From the sequence record NC_048205.1: 64,000 bases of DNA; one strand, written 5' to 3'. The position numbers were made by a program, and so were the translations under genes. Positions 27,524 through 62,842 of the stretch are shown in pieces. This stretch comes from Escherichia phage vB_Eco_mar004NP2. The number at the start of each line of letters is the position of its first letter. Position 1 is the stretch's first letter. The notes beneath the pieces were generated by a model. It searched no databases and had not been told where the DNA came from. It saw only the letters and a list, made by a program, of their open reading frames with translations.

Positions 27524-28156
27524 ATGACACAAGCTGCTATTGACTATAACAAGTTAAAATCAGCACCGGTTCATTTAGATGCTTATATTAAATCTATTGA
27601 TAGCGAATCCAAAGAGGGTGTTGTAAAAATACGTGGATTCGCTAATACAATTAGTAAAGATCGCGCTGGTGATGTAATTCCTGCTTCTGCATGGAAAACA
27701 TCTAATGCACTTACTAACTACATGAAAAACCCGATTATTCTTTTCGGACACGATCATCGTCGTCCAATCGGTAAGTGTATTGATCTTAACCCCACTGAAA
27801 TGGGTCTCGAAATCGAATGCGAGATCTATGAAAGTTCTGACCCGGCTATCTTTTCACTAATTAAAAACGGTGTACTGAAAACTTTTAGTATCGGATTCCG
27901 CTGCCTAGATGCAGAGTGGGATGAAGCTACTGATATATTTATTATTAAAGATTTAGAACTATACGAAGTTTCGGTAGTTTCTGTACCTTGTAATCAGGAC
28001 TCAACATTCAATCTCGCTAAGAGCATGAATGGTCATGATTATACTGAATGGCGTAAATCTTTTACTGCAATAAGTTCTAAAGCTGTCCCAGCTCAAGAAC
28101 GTAATCTTTCTGAACTAGAAAAACTTGCGATAGCTTTAGGCTACGTTAAAGAATAA
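27524..28156 (+). CDS. prohead protease
   Basis: 210 aa immediately upstream of major capsid gene. Confidence 0.65.
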   Translation: MTQAAIDYNKLKSAPVHLDAYIKSIDSESKEGVVKIRGFANTISKDRAGDVIPASAWKTSNALTNYMKNPIILFGHDHRRPIGKCIDLNPTEMGLEIECEIYESSDPAIFSLIKNGVLKTFSIGFRCLDAEWDEATDIFIIKDLELYEVSVVSVPCNQDSTFNLAKSMNGHDYTEWRKSFTAISSKAVPAQERNLSELEKLAIALGYVKE

Positions 28157-28173
28157 CGGAGAATTATTTAAAA

Positions 28174-29550
28174 ATGACTATTGATATTAATAAGCTGAAA
28201 GAAGAACTTGGTCTGGGTGATCTGGCTAAATCTCTGGAAGGTCTGACCGCTGCTCAGAAAGCCCAGGAAGCTGAACGTATGCGTAAAGAGCAGGAAGAAA
28301 AAGAACTGGCTCGTATGAATGACCTGGTTTCTAAAGCAGTTGGCGAAGATCGTCAGAAACTGGAACAAGCTCTGGAACTGGTTAAGTCCCTGGATGAAAA
28401 ATCTAAGAAGAGCGCAGAACTGTTCGCACAGACTGTAGAAAAGCAGCAGGAAACCATTGTTGGTCTTCAGGATGAAATTAAATCTCTGCTAGCAGCTCGT
28501 GAAGGTCGTTCCTTCGTCGGTGATAGCGTAGCTAAAGCACTGTATGGTACTCAGGAAGCTTTTGAAGATGAAGTTGAAAAACTAGTTCTCCTGTCTTATA
28601 TGATGGAGAAGGACGTATTTGAAACTGAACATGGTAAAGCCCACGTTAAAGCTGTTAATACTTCTTCCTCTGTACAGGTTTCCAGTGAAAACTACGAAAC
28701 TATTTTCTCTACCCGTATCCTTCGTGACCTGCAGAAAGAGTTAGTAGTTGGTGCACTGTTCGATGAACTGCCAATGTCCAGCAAAATTCTTACTATGCTG
28801 GTTGAGCCTGAAGCTGGAAAAGCTACTTGGGTAGATGCTGGTTCCTACGGTACTGATGCTACTGTTGGTAACGAAGTTAAAGGTACTCTGACTGAAATTA
28901 GTTTTAAAACCTACAAACTGGCTGCTAAGTCCTTCATTACTGATGAAACTGAAGAAGATGCAATCTTCTCCCTGCTGCCGCTGCTGCGTAAGCGTCTGAT
29001 TGAAGCACATGCTGTTTCTATCGAAGAAGCTTTTATGACTGGTGATGGTACTGGTAAGCCGAAAGGTCTGTTGAAACTGGCTGAAGATGATGGTGCTAAA
29101 GTTACTACTGAAGCTAAAGCTGATGGTACTGTTCTGGTAACTGCTAAAACTATCTCTAAACTGCGTCGTAAACTGGGTCGTCATGGTCTGAAACTGAGCA
29201 AACTGGTACTGATAGTATCTATGGATGCTTACTACGATCTGCTGGAAGACGAAGAATGGCAGGATGTTGCACAGGTTGGTAACGATGCTGTTAAACTGCA
29301 AGGTCAGGTTGGTCGTATCTATGGTCTTCCGGTTGTAGTTTCTGAATACTTCCCAGCTAAAGCAGCAGATAAAGAGTTCGCAGTTATTGTTTATAAAGAT
29401 AACTTCGTAATGCCGCGTCAGCGTGCTGTTACTGTTGAACGTGAGCGCCAAGCTGGTAAACAGCGTGATGCGTACTACGTTACTCAGCGTGTTAACCTGC
29501 AACGTTACTTCGAAAACGGCGTTGTATCTGGTGCTTACGCTGCATCTTAA
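28174..29550 (+). CDS. major capsid protein precursor (pb8-like, with N-terminal scaffold domain)
   Basis: 458 aa; coiled-coil N-terminal ~150 aa; very optimal codon usage; followed by terminator. Confidence 0.85.
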   Translation: MTIDINKLKEELGLGDLAKSLEGLTAAQKAQEAERMRKEQEEKELARMNDLVSKAVGEDRQKLEQALELVKSLDEKSKKSAELFAQTVEKQQETIVGLQDEIKSLLAAREGRSFVGDSVAKALYGTQEAFEDEVEKLVLLSYMMEKDVFETEHGKAHVKAVNTSSSVQVSSENYETIFSTRILRDLQKELVVGALFDELPMSSKILTMLVEPEAGKATWVDAGSYGTDATVGNEVKGTLTEISFKTYKLAAKSFITDETEEDAIFSLLPLLRKRLIEAHAVSIEEAFMTGDGTGKPKGLLKLAEDDGAKVTTEAKADGTVLVTAKTISKLRRKLGRHGLKLSKLVLIVSMDAYYDLLEDEEWQDVAQVGNDAVKLQGQVGRIYGLPVVVSEYFPAKAADKEFAVIVYKDNFVMPRQRAVTVERERQAGKQRDAYYVTQRVNLQRYFENGVVSGAYAAS

Positions 29551-29562
29551 TACAGGCTTTTC

Positions 29563-29596
29563 AGCCGATAAGGAGAGCTTCGGCTCTCCTTTTTTA
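29563..29596 (+). terminator. rho-independent terminator
   Basis: AAGGAGAGC-TTCG-GCTCTCCTT then TTTTTTATT. Confidence 0.7.
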
Positions 29597-29609
29597 TTGG
29601 GAAAAATAA

Positions 29610-30122
29610 ATGCAAATCATCACAGCCGAAGATTATAGATTATATGGTGGTTTAAAACGACCTGAATTAGAATCTGGTGTAGAAATGATGATTACTGCTG
29701 CCAATGCGCTGATCACAAGCCTTCTAGGCATGGATGACGCTGATGCGGTAGACCAGTTAATCAATACAAAACCTACACGTAGGAAATATTTTCTGAGCTC
29801 ACCATCTGCTACCTCCGTAACTAAAGTGACGATTAACGATAATGAGATTGACCCAGAGCAGTATAGGCTATACTCTGACGGTATTATCCTTCTCAAATTT
29901 AATCCTCCAGAAGGTTATATGGATGTAGCATATACACAAGGTGGATTCAATCCAATACCTGAAGATCTCAAACTTGCAGCATGTATGTTAGTAGATCATT
30001 GGCACAAACAAGATTATCGCCAAGCTAAAACAATTGGTGGTGAAACAGTAACCTTCAATAGCACTAAGTCTGGTATTCCAGAGCATATTCGTACTATTAT
30101 TGAAGTATATAGGAGAGTATAA
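29610..30122 (+). CDS. head completion/adaptor protein (170 aa)
   Basis: position after capsid gene. Confidence 0.45.
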   Translation: MQIITAEDYRLYGGLKRPELESGVEMMITAANALITSLLGMDDADAVDQLINTKPTRRKYFLSSPSATSVTKVTINDNEIDPEQYRLYSDGIILLKFNPPEGYMDVAYTQGGFNPIPEDLKLAACMLVDHWHKQDYRQAKTIGGETVTFNSTKSGIPEHIRTIIEVYRRV

Positions 30123-30889
30123 TGTCTCTTTCCGATCTAGCTAAACAAATTATTAAAGAGCAGCTAGATACTGCAGGACGATCTGAAAATAATAAGAATA
30201 CTGTTGTATACTCTGTTGAAACAGGGCTAAAAGATCCTACCAGAGATGGTACTGTTGCTCAAGTATCTTTTAAGTTTTCAAAGCCTGTATCCCAAGATCT
30301 TCTTGATGTTAGAACAGCCTCTATACTAAAAGCTGTATCCTCTAGTTTAGATCTTTCGGGAGATTTAGGTGCTTTAGAGAATTTAATACAAGCAACCGCT
30401 GGTAAAAAATCTGCTGTAGGTAAAAAACGTTCTACAGGCAGAGTACAGGTAAACTTTGGGGATCCTAGAGACGTAGAGGATGGATACTCAGGTGCAATAA
30501 CAGGTGCTTCCGGACGTTTTGTATCAAATAGCAATATGAAGGTTATATTAGAGATAGTTGCTAAAGAGTACTTAATAAAGGATATGAAAAAGACAGGAGC
30601 GCCATTAAAATTTAGAACCGGTCGCTTTGCAAATTCTCTGAAAATTAAGGATGTTATACTTAGAGATGCAGAGACTAGTAAAGGCTCTCCTGAATTGAAC
30701 GTAACATATAATTATATGACTCGTCCATATTCTGTATTCAACCCTGCAGTATCTACGTATAGAAGATTATCTCTAAGACCTTATCCTGGCGCTAGAAATC
30801 CACAAAAACTTATTGGTGAGGCTATAGCAAAAGCTGCAAGAGACCTGATTCACTCTAGATATAAAATCAAGGTTAATCAAGGAACCTAA
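30122..30889 (+). CDS. head-tail connector protein (255 aa)
   Basis: position; coupled start. Confidence 0.4.
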   Translation: MSLSDLAKQIIKEQLDTAGRSENNKNTVVYSVETGLKDPTRDGTVAQVSFKFSKPVSQDLLDVRTASILKAVSSSLDLSGDLGALENLIQATAGKKSAVGKKRSTGRVQVNFGDPRDVEDGYSGAITGASGRFVSNSNMKVILEIVAKEYLIKDMKKTGAPLKFRTGRFANSLKIKDVILRDAETSKGSPELNVTYNYMTRPYSVFNPAVSTYRRLSLRPYPGARNPQKLIGEAIAKAARDLIHSRYKIKVNQGT

Positions 30890-30892
30890 TAA

Positions 30893-31378
30893 ATGGACCA
30901 TAGAACAAGTATTGCACAAGCTCTGGTTGACCGTATATCTAAACAGTTGGACGGTTCTCAACCTGACGAATATTTTAATAACCTATATGGAAACGTTTCT
31001 CGTCAAACTTATAAATTTGAGGAAATACGAGAGTTTCCTTATGTGGCAGTTCATATCGGAACTGAAACTGGGCAGTATCTTCCTTCAGGCCAACAGTGGA
31101 TGTTTTTAGAACTTCCAATCCTGGTGTATGATAAAGAGAAAACAGACATTCAAGAGCAACTTGAAAAACTCGTAGCGGATATAAAAACCGTTATTGACAC
31201 AGGTGGAAATTTAGAATATACTGTTAGTAAACCTAATGGATCGACCTTCCCATGTGAGGCAACTGATATGATCATTACATCAGTTAGTACAGATGAGGGT
31301 CTACTGGCCCCATATGGTTTAGCAGAAATAAATGTAACAGTGAGGTATCAGCCTCCACGTAGGTCACTTCGCAGATAA
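30893..31378 (+). CDS. tail completion/terminator protein (161 aa)
   Basis: position upstream of tail tube gene. Confidence 0.4.
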   Translation: MDHRTSIAQALVDRISKQLDGSQPDEYFNNLYGNVSRQTYKFEEIREFPYVAVHIGTETGQYLPSGQQWMFLELPILVYDKEKTDIQEQLEKLVADIKTVIDTGGNLEYTVSKPNGSTFPCEATDMIITSVSTDEGLLAPYGLAEINVTVRYQPPRRSLRR

Positions 31379-31404
31379 GTTACAGATTAGGAGAAAATAA
31401 TTAA

Positions 31405-32814
31405 ATGTCTTTACAACTATTACGTAATACTCGAATCTTCGTGTCTACGGTTAAGACTGGTCATAATAAGACCAACACGCAAGAGATTCTAGTTCAGGAT
31501 GATATTTCTTGGGGTCAGGACAGTAACTCAACAGATATTACTGTTAATGAAGCTGGTCCGCGTCCAACTCGTGGTTCTAAACGTTTTAATGACTCTTTAA
31601 ACGCGGCTGAGTGGAGTTTCTCTACTTATATCCTGCCATATAAAGATAAAACTACTAACAAACAGATTGTCCCTGACTATATGTTATGGCATGCTCTTTC
31701 TAGCGGTAAAGCTCTTAACCTAGAAGGTGATACAGGAGCACATAATAACGAAACCAATTTTATGGTTAACTTTAAAGATAACGCGTACCACGAACTGGCA
31801 ATGCTGCATATCTACATCCTGACTGACAAAGCATGGAGTTACATCGACTCTTGCCAGATCAACCAGGCAGAAGTTAACGTTGATATTGAGGATATTGGTC
31901 GTGTAACTTGGTCAGGTAATGGTAACCAGCTTATTCCTTTGGATGAGCAACCATTTGATCCTGATACTGTAGGTATTGATGATGAAACTTATATGACTAT
32001 TCAGAGTTCTTATATCAAGAACAAATTGACTATCCTGAAAATTAAGGATATGGATTCTGATAAGGCATATGATATCCCTATTACTGGAGGTACTTTCACC
32101 ATTAATAACAATATTACGTACCTAACCCCCAATATTATGTCCCGTGTAAATATTCCGATCGGTTCATTTACTGGTGCGTTTGAACTAACTGGTTCTCTGA
32201 CAGCTTACCTTAATGATAAAGCTCTAGGATCTATGGAGCTATATAAAGATCTAATTAAAACTCTTAAGGTAGTTAACAAGTTTGAAGTTGCACTTATCCT
32301 TGGTGGTGAATATGATGATGAACGTCCGGCAGCTGTGTTAGTTGCTAAACAGGCGCATGTTAATATTCCTACTATTGAGACTGATGATGTACTTGGTACT
32401 TCAGTAGAGTTTAAAGCTATCCCTACAGATCTGGATACTGGTGATGAAGGTTATCTTGGTTTTTCTAACAAGTATACTAAAACCACTGTGGCTAATCTGA
32501 TTGCTACAGGAGATGGCGCTAAAACTCCACCAAAACTAGTTGAATCAATCACAGTTAAATCAGCTGGTAATGTCACTTCAGTGGAGAATAGCAATACTCT
32601 ACAGATGTCTGTTGAAGTAACTCCGCCAGATGCTACTAATAGTGCTGTAACTTGGTCTATTTCTAGCGGTGATGCAGCTACAATTGATCCAGAATCTGGT
32701 CTATTAACTGCGGATACTACTAAGACTGGAGAAGTTACTGTGAAAGCTGTAGCTAAAGACGGTTCTGGTGTAGAAGGTACTAAGAGCATTACAGTTACTG
32801 GTTCTGGTGGCTAA
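31405..32814 (+). CDS. major tail tube protein with C-terminal Ig-like (Big_2-type) domain (pb6-like)
   Basis: 469 aa; C-terminal VTWSISSGDAATIDPESGLLTA..VTVKAVAKDGSG. Confidence 0.7.
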   Translation: MSLQLLRNTRIFVSTVKTGHNKTNTQEILVQDDISWGQDSNSTDITVNEAGPRPTRGSKRFNDSLNAAEWSFSTYILPYKDKTTNKQIVPDYMLWHALSSGKALNLEGDTGAHNNETNFMVNFKDNAYHELAMLHIYILTDKAWSYIDSCQINQAEVNVDIEDIGRVTWSGNGNQLIPLDEQPFDPDTVGIDDETYMTIQSSYIKNKLTILKIKDMDSDKAYDIPITGGTFTINNNITYLTPNIMSRVNIPIGSFTGAFELTGSLTAYLNDKALGSMELYKDLIKTLKVVNKFEVALILGGEYDDERPAAVLVAKQAHVNIPTIETDDVLGTSVEFKAIPTDLDTGDEGYLGFSNKYTKTTVANLIATGDGAKTPPKLVESITVKSAGNVTSVENSNTLQMSVEVTPPDATNSAVTWSISSGDAATIDPESGLLTADTTKTGEVTVKAVAKDGSGVEGTKSITVTGSGG

Positions 32815-32818
32815 TTAA

Positions 32819-33721
32819 ATGTACTACTCTCTAATGAGAGAGTCAAAAGTTATAGTTGAGTATGATGGTAGGGCATTTCATTTTGATGCCCTATCAAACT
32901 ATGATATACAGACTTCCTACGAGGAATTCAAGACTCTTCGTAGGACTGTTCATCGTAGAACTAACTATGCAGACTCTATTATAAATGCTCAAACCCCCTC
33001 TTCTATCTCTCTAGCAGTAAATTTCAGTAATACTCTTACGGAGGCTAACTTCTTTGAATGGTTAGGTTTTGATAGAAAAGGTAATACTTTCTTACTCCCA
33101 CTATATAGTAATAATATTGAACCTATTATGTTTAATATCTATATAGTAAATAAAGATAATAACTGTGTATATTTTGAAAACTGCTATGTATCTACAGTAG
33201 ATTTTTCTTTAGATAAGAACATACCAATTCTTAATGTTGGTATTGAGTCTGGGAAATTCTCAGAAGTATCTACCTATAGAGAAGCAGCTTCTATTATACA
33301 GGGTGAAGTAATGTCTTACAGCCCAGTAATAGCTTCTACTAATGGCAGCATCTTACCCGGTCTTATTTCTGCCTCTTTATCTTTCCAGCAGCAGTGCTCT
33401 TGGAGAGAGGATAAGAGTGTTTTTGATATAAATAAAATTTATAATAATAAAAGAGCCTATGTAACTGAAATGAATGCTTCGGCAACCCTTTCTTTGTATT
33501 ACTTAAAACGTTTTGCAGGGGATATGGTTTATAATATAGAACCGGAGACAGATGTACCTTTAAATATAAGAAATAATAATATTTCTATAGATTTTCCTTC
33601 AGCACGTATTACAAAACGCCTAGATTTCTCAGATGTGTATAGAGTTGAGTGGGATATTATACCTACTGCTTCCTCAGACCCAGTGAGAATAGATTTCTTT
33701 GGAGAAATTAAAAATGATTAA
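32819..33721 (+). CDS. tail structural protein (300 aa)
   Basis: position between tube and tape measure genes. Confidence 0.4.
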   Translation: MYYSLMRESKVIVEYDGRAFHFDALSNYDIQTSYEEFKTLRRTVHRRTNYADSIINAQTPSSISLAVNFSNTLTEANFFEWLGFDRKGNTFLLPLYSNNIEPIMFNIYIVNKDNNCVYFENCYVSTVDFSLDKNIPILNVGIESGKFSEVSTYREAASIIQGEVMSYSPVIASTNGSILPGLISASLSFQQQCSWREDKSVFDINKIYNNKRAYVTEMNASATLSLYYLKRFAGDMVYNIEPETDVPLNIRNNNISIDFPSARITKRLDFSDVYRVEWDIIPTASSDPVRIDFFGEIKND

Positions 33722-34118
33722 TTTAAAAGATATTACTCTTGATACTCGTACTATTACTCTTTCCTACCCAGGTATGCCGAACTTTAAACTAGAACTTAAC
33801 TATATGTCTCGTGCTACCTCTAAACGTGTTATTTCTTCTGCTAAACGCGATGAATGGGTTAATGGTACTTTGATTCAGGTACAGGATGATGATAAGTTCA
33901 TTGAAGCCTTCGTTGACGCAGCTATTAAAGGTTGGACCGGTTTGACTGTAGGTGACGTTGAAAAACTGATGCTGATTGAAACAGATGCTGATCCTGCTAC
34001 TGAAGTTCCTTTTAGCCGCGATAATGCTGTAATGCTCATGCAGAACTCTGCTGCGTTTGACTCTTGGATCAACCAGACAGTGTTCCACTTAGACACTTTT
34101 CGTAGCCCAAAAGCGTAA
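33699..34118 (+). CDS. tail assembly chaperone (139 aa)
   Basis: acidic small protein upstream of tape measure gene. Confidence 0.45.
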   Translation: MEKLKMINLKDITLDTRTITLSYPGMPNFKLELNYMSRATSKRVISSAKRDEWVNGTLIQVQDDDKFIEAFVDAAIKGWTGLTVGDVEKLMLIETDADPATEVPFSRDNAVMLMQNSAAFDSWINQTVFHLDTFRSPKA

Positions 34119-34179
34119 AGAACTCCTAGATGCTGTTGCTGATTTTGCAGATAAATGTATTAAAAGCTCAGCATCTAAA

Positions 34180-34548
34180 ATGACCAAACAACAATATTTA
34201 ATACTTTGTGAGTCAATGGGTATAGAACCTGATCCTAAGGCTATGCCTGTTGAGCTTGAAGATTTTCCACCTATTGTAGCTATTAGTATGAATATTTATA
34301 ATAGTCTAGTTGACTGTTTCATACCTGGTGACTTTCCTATCTTTATAGGTAAAGATAAAGCTGCTCTAGGTGTTTTATTTGATATTTATGGGATTACCGA
34401 TCCTATAGAAAAAGAATTTGTTCTACACATTATCAATATATTTGATGCTAAAGCTGTAGACGCTGCACGTAAACGTGCCGAGAAGCATAAACCGCAAAAC
34501 GGAAGAATACCTAACGTTAAGCCACATGCTAGATCTCGGGCGCGATAA
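34180..34548 (+). CDS. tail assembly protein/chaperone (122 aa)
   Basis: position. Confidence 0.4.
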   Translation: MTKQQYLILCESMGIEPDPKAMPVELEDFPPIVAISMNIYNSLVDCFIPGDFPIFIGKDKAALGVLFDIYGITDPIEKEFVLHIINIFDAKAVDAARKRAEKHKPQNGRIPNVKPHARSRAR

Positions 34549-34583
34549 AAGTTTCCTCCAATGGGCGTTCCACGATGAGGCTT

Positions 34584-34616
34584 GGCTCTGGGTGATTTGC
34601 CCAGAGCCTTTTTTAT
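34584..34616 (+). terminator. rho-independent terminator
   Basis: GGCTCTGGG-TGATTTG-CCCAGAGCC then TTTTTTATT. Confidence 0.7.
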
Positions 34617-34631
34617 TGGGAAAAATAAAAT

Positions 34632-37600
34632 ATGACTGATAAGCTAATACGAGAATTACTGATAGACGTTAAACAGAAGGGGGCAACTCGTACTGCAAAG
34701 TCTATTGAAAACGTATCTGATGCATTAGAGAATGCTGCTGCGGCTTCTGAGCTAACGAATGAACAGTTAGGTAAAATGCCCAAAACTCTATACTCCATTG
34801 AGAGAGCAGCAGACAGGGCAGCAAAAAGTCTTACTAAAATGCAAGCTAGTAGGGGTATGGCTGGTATCACTAAATCCATTGATGGTATTGGTGATAAGCT
34901 AGATTACCTGGCTATCCAACTTATTGAAGTAACAGATAAGCTAGAAATTGGATTCGACGGAGTTTCTAGATCTGTTAAAACAATGGGCAATGATGTTGCA
35001 GCTGCAACAGAGAAAGTTCAAGATAGATTGTATGACACCAATAGAGTTTTAGGCGGTACAACTAGAGGTTTTAATGACACTGCAGGTGCCGCTGGTAGAG
35101 CTTCTAGAGCTATTGGTAATACTTCTGGTTCGGCACGTGGGGCTACCCGTGATTTTGCAGCAATGGCTAAGATCGGTGGTAGTTTACCTATTATGTATGC
35201 AGCTCTTGCTTCCAACATCTTCGTTTTGCAATCTGCATTCGAACAACTTAAGTTAGGTGATCAGCTAAATCGTCTAGAAAAATTTGGTGTTATAGTAGGT
35301 ACTCAGACAGGTACTCCTGTTCAGTCTCTTGCTAGATCACTACAAGAAGCTGCCGGATATGCTATCTCCTTTGAAGAAGCAATGAGACAAGCATCCTCTG
35401 CTTCTGCGTACGGATTTGATGCTGAACAACTTAATAAATTTGGTCTAGTAGCTCGTCGTGCTGCTGCTGTTCTTGGCGTTGATATGACTGATGCACTTAA
35501 CCGTGTAATTAAGGGTGTATCTAAACAAGAAATCGAACTTCTGGATGAACTTGGTGTTACTATTCGTCTTAATGACGCATATGCTGATTACGTTAAACAG
35601 TTGAATGCTGCAAACACAGGTATAACATATAATATTAATAGCCTTACTACCTTCCAGAAACAGCAAGCGTATGCTAATGCTGTTATAGCAGAGTCTACTA
35701 AACGTTTTGGTTACTTAGATGAAGTTTTACGTGCTACTCCGTGGGAGCAGTTTGCCGCTAATGCTGATGCCGCACTGAGAAAGATTCAGCAGGCTGCTGC
35801 TAAGTATTTAGGGCCGGTAATTGATGCTATCAACACAGTATTTTATACTTCTCAGGCTTCTATATCTGCTGAAGCAGCTAGAGCTCAAGAAAAAACCAAT
35901 AGACAGATAGATCCTACCAACGTTGGTGCTGTTGCTTTAAGTTTGGCCGCTTCTGAAGAAGGCTATAATAAAGCTCTAGATATGTACAAGGAATCTCTTG
36001 ATAAGCGTAATAAGCTAAAATCCGAATTCGATAAACGAATGGAGCAAGCGGATTTCTATACAAGATTAGCCATACGTCAAGTTGGTGAAGGTATTCCTGT
36101 TGGTCTTGCTGCTGCTGGTGCTTCCGAAGCTAATAAAAAGTTCGTAGAAGAAACTGCGGCTATGGGTCTACAAGTAACCAGACTAGGTAAGGAAGTAGAA
36201 GATTCTACTGAAAACCTTAATGCTTGGAAGTCAGCCTATCAAGCTGCGGGTGCTGCTGCTGCAAAAGCTAATCCAGAGTTTCAGAAACAGATTAATCTAC
36301 AGAGAGATACTACTGATCCTGGTGCTGTATATGACTTTAACTCCACAGTATTAAAAGGACTAACTGAACAACAGAAAGCATATAATCAAACTAAGAAAAC
36401 TGCTAGTGACTTAGCTAATGATATACAGAACGTTGCTCAGAATACAGATACTGCTGCTAAAACTAGTGCTACTTTAGCAGATGCTATAAAAAACATAGAA
36501 TCTCTATCCTTAGGCACTGGTAAGAGTGCCGATGAGTATGTTAAAAACCTTAACCTGGGCTATAACACACTGTCTGAAATGAAAACTGCATCTCAGGCTC
36601 TATCTGAGTATGTTAAACTAACTGGTAATGAAACTAAAAATCAGTTAGCAGTTCAACAGAAAATAGCTGATGTGTACAACCAAACTAAGGATAAGGAAAA
36701 GGCTCAGGAAGCGGGTAGACGTTTAGAGTTGCAACAGTTAGAAGAGCAAGAAGCTGCTTTACGCCGTGTTCTTCAAACAAACCAGGGAAATAAAGCTGTT
36801 GAGAAAGAAATTGAAAAAATTCAGCTGGAGAAACTTAGACTTACCAATCAGGGTATGGAAGCCCAGAAGAAGGTCAAGGATTACACAGATAAAATTCTTG
36901 GTGTAGATCGTGAGATAGCTCTCCTGAATGACCGTACTATGACTACTACTCAATATAGATTAGCTCAGCTAAAACTAGAACTAACTGTAGAGAAAGAGAA
37001 GTACGAATGGTATACAAAACAAGCGGACAAACAGAAAGAGGCGGAACAGTCTAGACGTGCGCAAGCACAAATAAGCCGGGAGTTATGGGAAGCGGAGAAG
37101 CAGGCAACTGCCTCACATGTATCAGCTCTCATGGATGCACTAGAAGTCAGCCAAACACAAAGAAATGTTACTGGCCAAGCTCAGATTCTTACGGAAAGAT
37201 TATCTGTTTTGCAAGAACAGCTAGAACTATCTAAGGGCAATACCGAAGAAGAGATCAAGTATCGTAATGAGATCTATAAAACTGCTGCTGCTCTAGAGCA
37301 ACTTAGAAAGCAAAGAGAAGGCCAAATGCAGCAACAGGTAGGATCTTCTGTGGGTGCTGTGTACACTCCTACAACTGGACTATCTGGGGAAGACAAAGAT
37401 TTTGCAGATATGCAAAATAGAATGGCTTCTTATGATCAGGCAATCTCTAAGCTATCTGAATTAAATTCTGAAGCAACCGCTGTGGCTCAAAGTATGGGTA
37501 ACTTAACTAACGCTATGATTCAGTTCTCTCAGGGATCCTTAGATACTACCTCCTTGATTGCTTCTGGCATGCAAACTGTATCTTCTATGATTCAGTATAG

Positions 37601-38312
37601 TACTAGTCAACAGGTTAGTGCTATTGATGCAGCTATCGCAGCGGAGCAGAAACGTGATGGTAAATCAGAAGCATCTAAAGCTAAATTGAAGAAGCTAGAA
37701 GCTGAAAAGCTGAAGATTCAACAAGACGCAGCTAAGAAGCAGATTATCATCCAAACTGCGGTAGCAGTAATGCAAGCGGCAACAGCTGTACCGTACCCGT
37801 TCTCTATTCCTTTGATGGTGGCGGCAGGTTTAGCAGGTGCCTTAGCTCTTGCTCAAGCATCTTCTGCTTCTGGTATGTCAAGTATTGCTGATTCTGGAGC
37901 GGATACAACTAGTTACTTAACCTTAGGAGAGCGTCAGAAGAATATAGATGTGTCTATGTCTGCTAATGCTGGTGAATTATCTTATATCCGTGGTGATAAA
38001 GGCATAGGCGGTGCTAACTCTTTCGTTCCTCGTGCTGAGGGTGGTAATATGTACCCTGGGGTTAGCTATCAAATGGGTGAGCATGGTACAGAAGTAGTTA
38101 CCCCTATGGTTCCTATGAAAGCTACGCCTAATGATGAGCTAAAAACCTCATCTAACTCAACTTCAGGAAGACCTATCATCCTGAATATTAGTGCTATGGA
38201 TGCTGCAAGTTTTAGAGAGTTTGCTTCTAGTAATAGTAGTGCTCTAAGAGACGCAGTGGAATTAGCTCTGAATGAGAACGGTGCTAGTCTGAAAACATTA
38301 GGAAATTCTTAA
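34632..38312 (+). CDS. tape measure protein (pb2-like)
   Basis: 1226 aa, extensive coiled coil, hydrophobic Ala/Gly-rich segment near C-terminus. Confidence 0.9.
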   Translation: MTDKLIRELLIDVKQKGATRTAKSIENVSDALENAAAASELTNEQLGKMPKTLYSIERAADRAAKSLTKMQASRGMAGITKSIDGIGDKLDYLAIQLIEVTDKLEIGFDGVSRSVKTMGNDVAAATEKVQDRLYDTNRVLGGTTRGFNDTAGAAGRASRAIGNTSGSARGATRDFAAMAKIGGSLPIMYAALASNIFVLQSAFEQLKLGDQLNRLEKFGVIVGTQTGTPVQSLARSLQEAAGYAISFEEAMRQASSASAYGFDAEQLNKFGLVARRAAAVLGVDMTDALNRVIKGVSKQEIELLDELGVTIRLNDAYADYVKQLNAANTGITYNINSLTTFQKQQAYANAVIAESTKRFGYLDEVLRATPWEQFAANADAALRKIQQAAAKYLGPVIDAINTVFYTSQASISAEAARAQEKTNRQIDPTNVGAVALSLAASEEGYNKALDMYKESLDKRNKLKSEFDKRMEQADFYTRLAIRQVGEGIPVGLAAAGASEANKKFVEETAAMGLQVTRLGKEVEDSTENLNAWKSAYQAAGAAAAKANPEFQKQINLQRDTTDPGAVYDFNSTVLKGLTEQQKAYNQTKKTASDLANDIQNVAQNTDTAAKTSATLADAIKNIESLSLGTGKSADEYVKNLNLGYNTLSEMKTASQALSEYVKLTGNETKNQLAVQQKIADVYNQTKDKEKAQEAGRRLELQQLEEQEAALRRVLQTNQGNKAVEKEIEKIQLEKLRLTNQGMEAQKKVKDYTDKILGVDREIALLNDRTMTTTQYRLAQLKLELTVEKEKYEWYTKQADKQKEAEQSRRAQAQISRELWEAEKQATASHVSALMDALEVSQTQRNVTGQAQILTERLSVLQEQLELSKGNTEEEIKYRNEIYKTAAALEQLRKQREGQMQQQVGSSVGAVYTPTTGLSGEDKDFADMQNRMASYDQAISKLSELNSEATAVAQSMGNLTNAMIQFSQGSLDTTSLIASGMQTVSSMIQYSTSQQVSAIDAAIAAEQKRDGKSEASKAKLKKLEAEKLKIQQDAAKKQIIIQTAVAVMQAATAVPYPFSIPLMVAAGLAGALALAQASSASGMSSIADSGADTTSYLTLGERQKNIDVSMSANAGELSYIRGDKGIGGANSFVPRAEGGNMYPGVSYQMGEHGTEVVTPMVPMKATPNDELKTSSNSTSGRPIILNISAMDAASFREFASSNSSALRDAVELALNENGASLKTLGNS

Positions 38313-38316
38313 AACT

Positions 38317-38346
38317 GGAGGAGGACTTTGAGTCCTCCTTTTCTTT
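38317..38346 (+). terminator. rho-independent terminator
   Basis: GGAGGACT-TTG-AGTCCTCC then TTTTCTTT. Confidence 0.65.
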
Positions 38347-38421
38347 ATGGAAAAATAAAAATTTCTTGATAAAATTTTCTAATACTATTATAATATTGTT
38401 ATTAAAGAGGAGAAATTAACT

Positions 38422-39036
38422 ATGAGATTACCAGACCCATACACGAATCCAGAACTTTCAGGCTTAGGATTCGAAAGTGTTAACCTGATTGATAATGACC
38501 CAGTAATTCGTGATGAGTTACCAAATGGTAAAGTTAACGAAGTTAAGGTATCTGCTCAATACTGGGGTATAAATATTTCTTATCCAGAATTATTTCCAGA
38601 TGAATATAGTGTTCTAGATGCATTTATTCTAGAATACAAAAGGACTGGTGGTTATATAGATGTTATATTACCACAATACGAAGCTTTTAGAGTTAGAGGT
38701 AATACTAGCCTAGTAAATATACCTGCTGGACAGAAGGGTTCTAATATAACTATGGATACAAAAGGACTTCTCACAGGTATTCCAAAACCAGGGGATCTAT
38801 TTAAGCTATCTAACCATCCAAAAGTATATAAAATAACATCATTCAATAAATCAGGCAATACGTGGTCTATAAACTTATACCCTGATTTATTTATAACTAC
38901 TACTGGGGCTGAGAAACCAGTGTTTAACGGAATACTATTTAGAACAAAACTCATGAATGGTGATGCTTTCGGATCTACATTAAATAATAACGGAACATAT
39001 TCCGGCATCTCATTAAATTTACGGGAAAGTTTATGA
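38422..39036 (+). CDS. distal tail protein (Dit, pb9-like)
   Basis: 204 aa directly after tape measure gene. Confidence 0.6.
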   Translation: MRLPDPYTNPELSGLGFESVNLIDNDPVIRDELPNGKVNEVKVSAQYWGINISYPELFPDEYSVLDAFILEYKRTGGYIDVILPQYEAFRVRGNTSLVNIPAGQKGSNITMDTKGLLTGIPKPGDLFKLSNHPKVYKITSFNKSGNTWSINLYPDLFITTTGAEKPVFNGILFRTKLMNGDAFGSTLNNNGTYSGISLNLRESL

Positions 39037-48812: not shown

Positions 48813-48817
48813 AAGAA

Positions 48818-48850
48818 AACCCCAGTGGACAAAATCCACTGGGGTTTATT
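48818..48850. terminator. bidirectional rho-independent terminator
   Basis: CCCCAGTGGA-CAAAAT-TCCACTGGGG with T-tract on plus and A-tract upstream. Confidence 0.75.
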
Positions 48851-53477: not shown

Positions 53478-53497
53478 AAGAAAGGGGCCGAAGCCCC
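53478..53497 (-). terminator. terminator-like hairpin on minus strand
   Basis: AGGGGC-TTCG-GCCCCT followed on minus strand by TTCTTTTT. Confidence 0.5.
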
Positions 53498-53505
53498 TCT
53501 ATTTA

Positions 53506-62074: not shown

Positions 62075-62842
62075 TTATTCAGCAGCCGCAGCTTTTGCAT
62101 CCAGTTTAGCACGCTTAGCGGCACCATCATAGTCCTTAGCAACCAGACCACGACGAGACAGCATAGATTTAACACCACGCTCAGACTTGCCAGTTTTCTC
62201 AGCGATCTCAGCAACAGTCATGTTAACCAGATCCAGACCCTCTAACAGATCTTCACGAGTTTTAGCACTTGAGGTTTCCTGTACCGGCATAGCCGCGATA
62301 CGACCTTCACGAAGCAGGCTCAGAGCTTTACCACGGATCTGCTTGATATTACGACCGAAGTGAGCAGCGATAGCTTCAATAGTAGCACCAGCAACAACCT
62401 GATTAACAAAATCAGTTTCTTCATCCGGAGTGAAGGAACGAACAGCAGCAGCTTTTTCGGTTGGCTTAACAGAAGCGGTCATTTCCAGACTCAGAATCTT
62501 ACCCTGTACCTGTTTAGCACCGAACTGACCACCAGCTACAGCAGCAGCGATTTCAGCATAGGTATACTGACCAGCATGAGCGTTCAGGAAATCAACCAGT
62601 TCAGCTTCCTGCTCAGGAGTCCACGGGGATTTCTGTACTTCGTTAGCTTTTTGTACTTCAAAACCTTCTTTACGCAGCTTAGAGCCAACAGAGCGAGCGG
62701 TAACGTCTTTGCCAGTTTCAGCAGCCAGTTCAGCAGCGATAGCAGCTACTTGTTCTTGAGAGATTACAGCAACACCCAGAGCAGTGGCTTTTGCTTTCAG
62801 AGACTCGGTTACACCTTCTACGTTCCAGTTCAGTTTAGACAT
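62075..62842 (-). CDS. putative DNA-binding protein, Ala/Lys-rich (255 aa)
   Basis: ORF; helix-rich; function positional guess. Confidence 0.5.
   Translation of the reverse strand: MSKLNWNVEGVTESLKAKATALGVAVISQEQVAAIAAELAAETGKDVTARSVGSKLRKEGFEVQKANEVQKSPWTPEQEAELVDFLNAHAGQYTYAEIAAAVAGGQFGAKQVQGKILSLEMTASVKPTEKAAAVRSFTPDEETDFVNQVVAGATIEAIAAHFGRNIKQIRGKALSLLREGRIAAMPVQETSSAKTREDLLEGLDLVNMTVAEIAEKTGKSERGVKSMLSRRGLVAKDYDGAAKRAKLDAKAAAAE

Follow-up and report, generated by a model that had tools for sequence, protein, structure and literature searches.

The repeated late-operon box of a T5-like phage is most probably a terminator U-tract fused to a weak ribosome-binding site

The DNA analysed here, a 64,000-nt window of Escherichia phage vB_Eco_mar004NP2 (NC_048205.1), belongs to a T5-like phage. 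Over 33600-35600 it matches Salmonella phage PMBT29 at 100% identity, and some 440 further Demerecviridae records at 80-99%. A 21-base box, TTTTTTATTGGGAAAAATAAA, occurs twice on the plus strand of the window, at 29590-29610 (copy 1) and at 34609-34629 (copy 2). The features at the two sites are as follows.

28174-29550, plus strand: major head (capsid) protein gene, 5' of copy 1; 458-aa ORF, orthologue annotated in phage oldekolle.
29570-29591, plus strand: terminator hairpin 1, AAGGAGAGC-UUCG-GCUCUCCUU, with a C(UUCG)G tetraloop; from terminator scan and folding.
29590-29598, plus strand: terminator 1 U-tract TTTTTTATT, left part of copy 1; adjoins hairpin 1.
29599-29609, plus strand: right part of copy 1, weak Shine-Dalgarno GGGA (29599-29602) and 7-nt spacer AAAATAA.
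29610-30122, plus strand: head-tail adaptor / head completion gene; 170-aa ORF, from annotation.
34180-34548, plus strand: second tape-measure (tail assembly) chaperone gene, 5' of copy 2; 122-aa ORF, from annotation.
34552-34583, plus strand: conserved 3'-UTR element TTTCCTCCAATGGGCGTTCCACGATGAGGCTT; invariant fraction 0.8.
34584-34608, plus strand: terminator hairpin 2, GGCUCUGGGU-GAUUU-GCCCAGAGCC; from terminator scan, folding and covariation.
34609-34617, plus strand: terminator 2 U-tract TTTTTTATT, left part of copy 2; conserved in all sampled lineages.
34618-34631, plus strand: weak Shine-Dalgarno GGGA (34618-34621) and 10-nt A-rich spacer AAAATAAAAT; 34629 is the last base of the box.
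34632-38312, plus strand: tape measure / pore-forming tail tip protein (pb2) gene; 1226-aa ORF, from annotation.

The exact repeat spans 23 bp (29588-29610 and 34607-34629), as it includes two further C's (CC) on the left and no base on the right. No further copy of the box is present in the window on either strand, with up to three mismatches allowed. Dinucleotide-preserving shuffles yielded a mean of 0.03 chance matches, and none of 100 shuffles reached two. Copy 1 lies in a 59-nt intergenic gap and overlaps the head-tail adaptor gene by its final base, the A of the ATG. The gap that holds copy 2 measures 83 nt, and this copy stops 2 nt short of the tape-measure ATG. The first-pass annotation had placed an identical second copy of a conserved post-terminator box at 34609-34631, directly before the tape measure gene. 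The identity and the gene context are borne out: the match is exact from 34609 to 34629, and the ATG at 34632 opens the 1226-aa ORF known as pb2 in public records. The last two bases of that span (34630-34631, AT) fall outside the repeat. The two tape-measure chaperone ORFs upstream of copy 2 (33714-34118 and 34180-34548) are 61 nt apart with the second in the +1 frame, a layout unlike that of typical G/GT chaperone pairs, which overlap and use a -1 frameshift.

Both copies follow a hairpin without any gap. Hairpin 1 comprises nine pairs and a UUCG loop (-14.5 kcal/mol), and hairpin 2 comprises eleven pairs, seven of them G-C (-19.1 kcal/mol). They start 19 nt past the stop codon of the major head gene and 35 nt past that of the chaperone gene, respectively, and a terminator scan identifies them as the best two intrinsic-terminator candidates within the plus-strand late operon. 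Copy 2 follows a terminator hairpin, as had been claimed earlier; this hairpin, at 34584-34608, adjoins the T run. The first nine bases of the box, TTTTTTATT, contain six U's with an interrupting A and adjoin both stems directly. They are the terminator's own U-tract, and these nine bases are therefore not 'post-terminator', as the box had been labelled. Stem covariation supports RNA hairpins at both sites. Hairpin 1 is the sole consensus structure in a nine-sequence alignment, with one compensatory change from G-C to A-U, and RNAalifold shows compensatory double changes across lineages at four stem pairs of hairpin 2 (nine diverse sequences). The two hairpins are unrelated in sequence and have only the tail in common. 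A bidirectional function of either was considered and rejected, as the reverse strand carries no T run after the hairpin. Searching 28000-39000 against Rfam 15 gave no match at the gathering score and sub-threshold chance matches only.

Further hairpins were seen in the surroundings. A small GGC-N5-6-GCC hairpin followed by GA (29555-29566) lies just 5' of terminator 1; it is kept with a variable loop in all enterobacterial lineages, and the capsid stop codon of PM135 falls into this loop. At 48817-48847, where the plus-strand late operon meets converging minus-strand genes, a hairpin of 13-14 pairs has T runs on both sides and is likely a bidirectional terminator. A second terminator with a UUCG loop is located on the minus strand at 53481-53500 (region 53479-53500).

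The right part of the box has the properties of a weak ribosome-binding site. GGGA pairs with UCCU of the 16S rRNA 3' end, and the anti-Shine-Dalgarno duplex is weak at both copies (-4.2 kcal/mol), compared with a window median of -6.0 kcal/mol (67 genes); 50 of these 67 genes bind more strongly. A spacer of 7 nt separates GGGA from the ATG at copy 1, and one of 10 nt does so at copy 2. Most genes in the window carry GGAG and an A/T-rich spacer ending in TAA or AAA, and the start region of the minus-strand gene 62075-62842, ATTGGAGAAAAATAATAATG, is nearly equal to the right half of the box. Ribosome_binding_site features are annotated at the orthologous GGAA of Yersinia phage phiR2-01 and at GGA of Klebsiella phage Sealy. 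We found no sign that the start regions are occluded, since their predicted accessibility is unremarkable (ranks 25 and 51 of 59), and RNA structure thus gives no independent sign of throttled translation.

We hold with high confidence that the box is an intrinsic-terminator U-tract fused to a weak ribosome-binding site, and not a separate element. Its parts are already known. They are textbook signals that are marked in GenBank for T5, BF23, PR1, Sealy and phiR2-01: the T5 record (AY587007) lists hairpin 2 as a putative rho-independent terminator, a terminator feature stands at hairpin 2 in Sealy and in Providencia phage PR1, and the records of BF23 and HdH2 have a 'terminator' feature under the same match.

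Orthologous junctions were compared in 30 T5-like viral contigs and in a more distant set of Demerecviridae, namely Klebsiella/Sugarland-like phages, Eos, L103, the My1-like L104, Proteus phage PM135, Providencia phage PR1 and a Vibrio phage. The T5 group and all of these except the Vibrio phage are referred to as the seven lineages. The T5-6ATT tail is retained at both sites in all sampled enterobacterial lineages; in PM135 the U-tract at site 2 reads TTTTTTATA. A G cluster is found 7-10 nt 5' of the ATG in all seven lineages, with its sequence shifting among Shine-Dalgarno-compatible forms: GGGA, GGGT, GGGTGA, GAGG, GGAG and AGGA at equal distance from the ATG at site 1, and GGA, GGATGA, GAGG and AGGTGA in the orthologues of site 2. 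The spacer is A/T-rich throughout the seven lineages, and its sequence is not conserved. Thus, the conservation that had been claimed for the box holds for its left part, which is invariant through GG(G) across genera. The notion of a discrete box does not hold up, given that its halves vary independently across relatives and that T5 carries a gene between them. In the Vibrio phage, both terminators lack the box, and a canonical AGGAGG lies 11-18 nt further downstream, so that terminator and ribosome-site functions are physically separate there.

T5 itself offers a natural dissection of the box. Its site 2 reads ...GCCCAGAGCC-TTTTTTATT-TATAAACATATAGG..., and a 249-aa ORF is inserted between the U-tract and pb2 (AY587007, L100 1264-2050; corresponding to 34617/34618 of the window). 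The terminator keeps its tail, and the start region of pb2 differs, reading AGGAAAACATTAG-ATG, with the stop codon of the insert overlapping the pb2 start (TAGATG). The insertion therefore cuts the box precisely where the U-tract gives way to the ribosome site, in a phage that is viable. By Pfam, the inserted ORF has a CapR homology domain (E = 2e-24) and a treble-clef zinc finger (E = 1e-6), and it looks like a mobile, homing-endonuclease-like gene.

Some T5-like genomes, L003 (5876-6448), L009 and L025, have a 190-aa ORF in the gap that separates the major head gene from terminator 1 (corresponding to about 29551-29560 of the window). It shares C..C zinc motifs, TFYIQ, KYGIT and LPDGYSETC with the T5 insert, and on these sequence motifs the two apparently form one family. 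Both terminator-bearing gaps therefore look like hot spots at which this gene family inserts.

A box that occurs exactly twice, at equivalent junctions of the late operon, poses the question whether it is a discrete DNA or RNA operator bound by a phage-encoded antiterminator, translational repressor or similar regulator, which would co-ordinate the head-tail joining genes with the tape measure gene. Here, the inverted repeat TTTATT-N6-AATAAA inside the box might be the binding site, GGGAAAAATAAA would be the sequence specifically footprinted by a phage or host protein, and the exact sequence of the A-rich AAAAATAAA would matter for expression. The unusually deep conservation of the left part would fit such an operator, as would the likeness of the two copies in detail within several genomes (TGAAA at both in Eos, GG(G)AAAAATA at both in PR1). 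However, the inverted repeat is kept in the T5 group and at site 1 of PR1 and is lost in Klebsiella-type phages, Eos, L103, the My1-like phage and PM135; as RNA it folds at merely -0.9 kcal/mol. The viability of T5 with its split box and the terminators of the Vibrio relative, which lack the box, also speak against an operator, and so does the spread of the sequence to phages that would share no T5 regulator, which is described below. We consider an operator very unlikely.

This spread became apparent when the 17-mer CTTTTTTATTGGGAAAA, which consists of the first 16 bases of the box and the preceding C, was scanned in IMG/VR. Among the matches listed, the 17-mer occurs in more than 120 stretches, mostly outside T5-like genomes, and in at least 56 distinct non-T5 viral contexts. 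Within these 56 listed contexts, a hairpin adjoins the T run in 36, a start codon that opens at least 100 codons follows within 12 nt in 28, and the two coincide in 20, compared with 2.2%, 4.4% and 0.15%, respectively, at random positions in the same loci. The hairpins are unrelated to those described here. The spacing from GGGA to the start codon in the unrelated phages among these matches is mostly 5-7 nt. Pakpunavirus phages of Pseudomonas, which are likewise unrelated, have an equal architecture, GGGGAGCTTCGGCTCCC-TTTTTCATT-GGAG-ATAAAAA-ATG, and an Acinetobacter phage carries a hairpin of like type with the tail TTTTTTATTG; its record labels this a terminator, and a promoter comes next.

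One unrelated 42.6-kb metagenomic siphophage (L039 9511-9532, minus strand; L078 3100-3145, plus strand) has the identical TTTTTTATTGGGAAAAATAAATGAC behind a different hairpin. There too the gene that directly follows the box encodes a tape measure protein (phrog_9483, E = 9e-104), and no significant homology of this gene to pb2 was detected. The identical box of this phage is probably a case of convergence. We also considered a tape-measure-specific signal and discarded it, as CTTTTTTATTGGGAAAA precedes many different genes in unrelated phages. The wide recurrence of the 17-mer suggests that the box is a convergent and easily reached way to put a start codon behind a terminator. Such a fusion of terminator tail and weak ribosome site could serve as a compact synthetic part.

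The same data bear on why the two copies are so alike. The T5 group shows no difference between them over 23 bp; other genera have differences at 1-5 positions, and the copies still track each other there. One possibility is that this identity is a by-product of a duplicated terminator-ribosome-site cassette, or of gene conversion between sites 5 kb apart, and has no meaning beyond the generic signals. The tracking of the copies, and the fact that the tail alone is shared between otherwise unrelated hairpins, would agree with this. On the other hand, 23 bp is short for homologous recombination, and the independent recurrence of CTTTTTTATTGGGAAAA in unrelated phages shows that convergence suffices. 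Furthermore, the adaptor protein of the window shares only 29-33% identity with those of PM135 and PR1, and PR1, at 29%, carries a site-1 tail equal to that of the T5 group, which points to long-term purifying selection and not to recent homogenisation. Duplication or conversion is therefore rather unlikely in our estimation. The best explanation is that the copies were already near-identical in the common ancestor of the enterobacterial T5-like genera and have stayed so, and that they are identical because both are under the same tight, overlapping constraints.

How tight these constraints may be is seen in a six-sequence alignment of the ~7-kb head-tail module, in which the five sequences other than the Vibrio one were scored for invariance. 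The module has a mean invariant fraction of 0.29. The longest invariant run covers 32 nt (29570-29601) and consists of hairpin 1 and TTTTTTATTGGG, making the site-1 module the most conserved stretch of the head-tail region in these five lineages and a handy landmark. The next-best 30-nt window of the module is 34553-34582, just 5' of hairpin 2. The 23-bp identity and the 32-nt invariant run exceed the strict need of a generic terminator, and the drift of the site 2 stem via compensatory changes shows that a terminator stem can vary. The conservation at site 1 is explained in part by the hairpin sequence being a recurrent optimum in many unrelated phages, in which GGAGAGCTTCGGCTCTCC followed by T's is found and sometimes annotated as a terminator, and further by the overlap of terminator and ribosome-site constraints. 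It hints at unusually tight selection on a terminator that adjoins a start codon.

The element at 34552-34583 (TTTCCTCCAATGGGCGTTCCACGATGAGGCTT) was noted in its own right. It is non-coding, is located between the chaperone stop codon and terminator 2, contains an anti-Shine-Dalgarno-like CCUCC and is found from T5 to the Proteus and Providencia phages. It may form a small hairpin of its own or pair with the downstream U-tract and Shine-Dalgarno. In the latter case, UUCCACGAUGAGG would pair with UUUUAUUGGGAA and hide the Shine-Dalgarno of site 2 in readthrough transcripts, which would further lower translation of the tape measure gene and would supplement, not replace, the fusion of terminator tail and ribosome site. 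This helix is present in the minimum-free-energy and centroid folds with a local gain of ~10 kcal/mol (-29.7 vs -19.1), RNAalifold retains an 11-pair lower stem with the box columns (nine diverse sequences), 94% of cells pair in register as opposed to 55-74% when the strands are slid, and the helix would account for the strong conservation of 34552-34583. However, it shows no compensatory double changes, many of its pairs are G-U, and the Shine-Dalgarno region is no more paired than is usual, with an unpaired probability of 0.48 (rank 36 of 59, 115-nt context). Pairing of purine-rich tracts with U-tracts is moreover a common feature of terminators anyway. We regard the helix as a possible but doubtful addition at site 2. 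At site 1, the consensus fold contains the terminator hairpin only and leaves the box unpaired; a long-range pairing of the box seen in the single-sequence centroid fold is absent from the consensus fold and was dismissed.

It is conceivable that hairpin 1 with TTTTTTATTGGG and the pairing of 34552-34583 form a dedicated cis-regulatory device that goes beyond a generic junction. Examples would be an RNA through which a phage factor controls readthrough or translation, or a Shine-Dalgarno-sequestering switch, which would set the ratios of tape measure to chaperone and of adaptor to capsid. We think this distinctly unlikely.

The fusion of terminator tail and ribosome site acquires its meaning from the layout of the late operon. 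A sigma-70-type site at 31194-31222 (TTGACA-17-TATACT, 11/12), whose TTGACA (31194-31199) is invariant across five lineages, lies 5' of the major tail protein gene, and another at 38366-38394 (TTGATA-17-TATAAT, 11/12) lies 5' of the distal tail protein gene. A further terminator is located at 38317, downstream of the tape measure gene. The two sigma-70-type sites are probably late promoters that delimit terminator-bounded transcription units. A promoter scan found no promoter-like site (at least 10/12) from terminator 1 to 31194 or from terminator 2 to 38366. With no intervening promoter, the adaptor, tail completion, tail terminator and tape measure genes need readthrough.

This would be different if the box itself were a promoter or UP element that restarts transcription past the terminator, for which its A/T-richness and the TAAAAT at 34625-34630 in site 2 might be adduced. 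Yet the box ends 0-2 nt from the ATG, too close for a transcript started by it to include a ribosome site, site 1 has no TAAAAT, and the promoter scan shows no -35/-10 pair at the box, while clear sigma-70-type promoters stand at 31194 and 38366. Moreover, strong promoters read by the host's sigma-70 RNA polymerase are reported for the late genes of T5 (PMC7472727). A promoter role of the box is extremely improbable. A T5 nick site was rejected as well: the box lacks GCGC, and the lone GCGC nearby (34537-34545) is not conserved. Nick sites of T5 involve GCGC-type sequences.

For the fusion of terminator tail and ribosome site, which we prefer, we propose the following scenario. Host RNA polymerase transcribing the late operon would mostly stop at terminator 1, after the abundant major head protein gene, and at terminator 2, which follows the tape-measure chaperone genes. 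A minor share of the transcripts would read through, and on these, ribosomes would start at the weak Shine-Dalgarno directly 3' of the hairpin. Adaptor/neck proteins and tape measure protein, which are present in few copies per virion, would consequently be made in low amounts. Termination, partial readthrough and weak translation at both sites are predicted; the accessible papers on T5-like phages contain predicted promoters and terminators only, and no transcript-end, readthrough or ribosome-binding data were found in them. The dependence on readthrough and the weak Shine-Dalgarno together would give low output of few-copy proteins 3' of genes whose products are required in bulk. Taken together, terminators 1 and 2 probably set the stoichiometry of the late operon, with the abundant capsid and chaperone genes upstream and the low-copy adaptor/neck and tape measure genes downstream.

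Several known systems resemble these junctions. The tail of the lambda tR2 terminator, UUUUUAUUUGG, is like the box in having a U-tract with a single interrupting A, followed by G's; this is a lead only, and tR2 differs in its hairpin and in having no start codon directly after it. The right part of the box resembles Shine-Dalgarno regions with A-rich spacers, in which a G cluster stands 7-10 nt before the ATG, whereas GGGA is a weak variant and its 5' flank is a terminator U-tract. Phage T7 has a leaky terminator, T-phi, after the major capsid gene 10, which acts on T7 RNA polymerase. Both sites described here are similar to T-phi in that a terminator follows an abundant structural gene, and promoterless low-copy genes downstream need readthrough. 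In contrast to T7, host sigma-70 RNA polymerase is used in T5-like phages, and the leakiness of their terminators is predicted. Finally, C(UUCG)G tetraloop hairpins were reportedly described in intercistronic regions of phage T4 by Tuerk et al. in 1988. Site 1 is like such T4-type terminators in its G+C-rich stem, its UUCG loop, its U run and its intergenic place after a highly expressed gene. Nothing essential differs, except that here the U-tract meets the Shine-Dalgarno without a spacer and hairpin 1 is invariant across five lineages.
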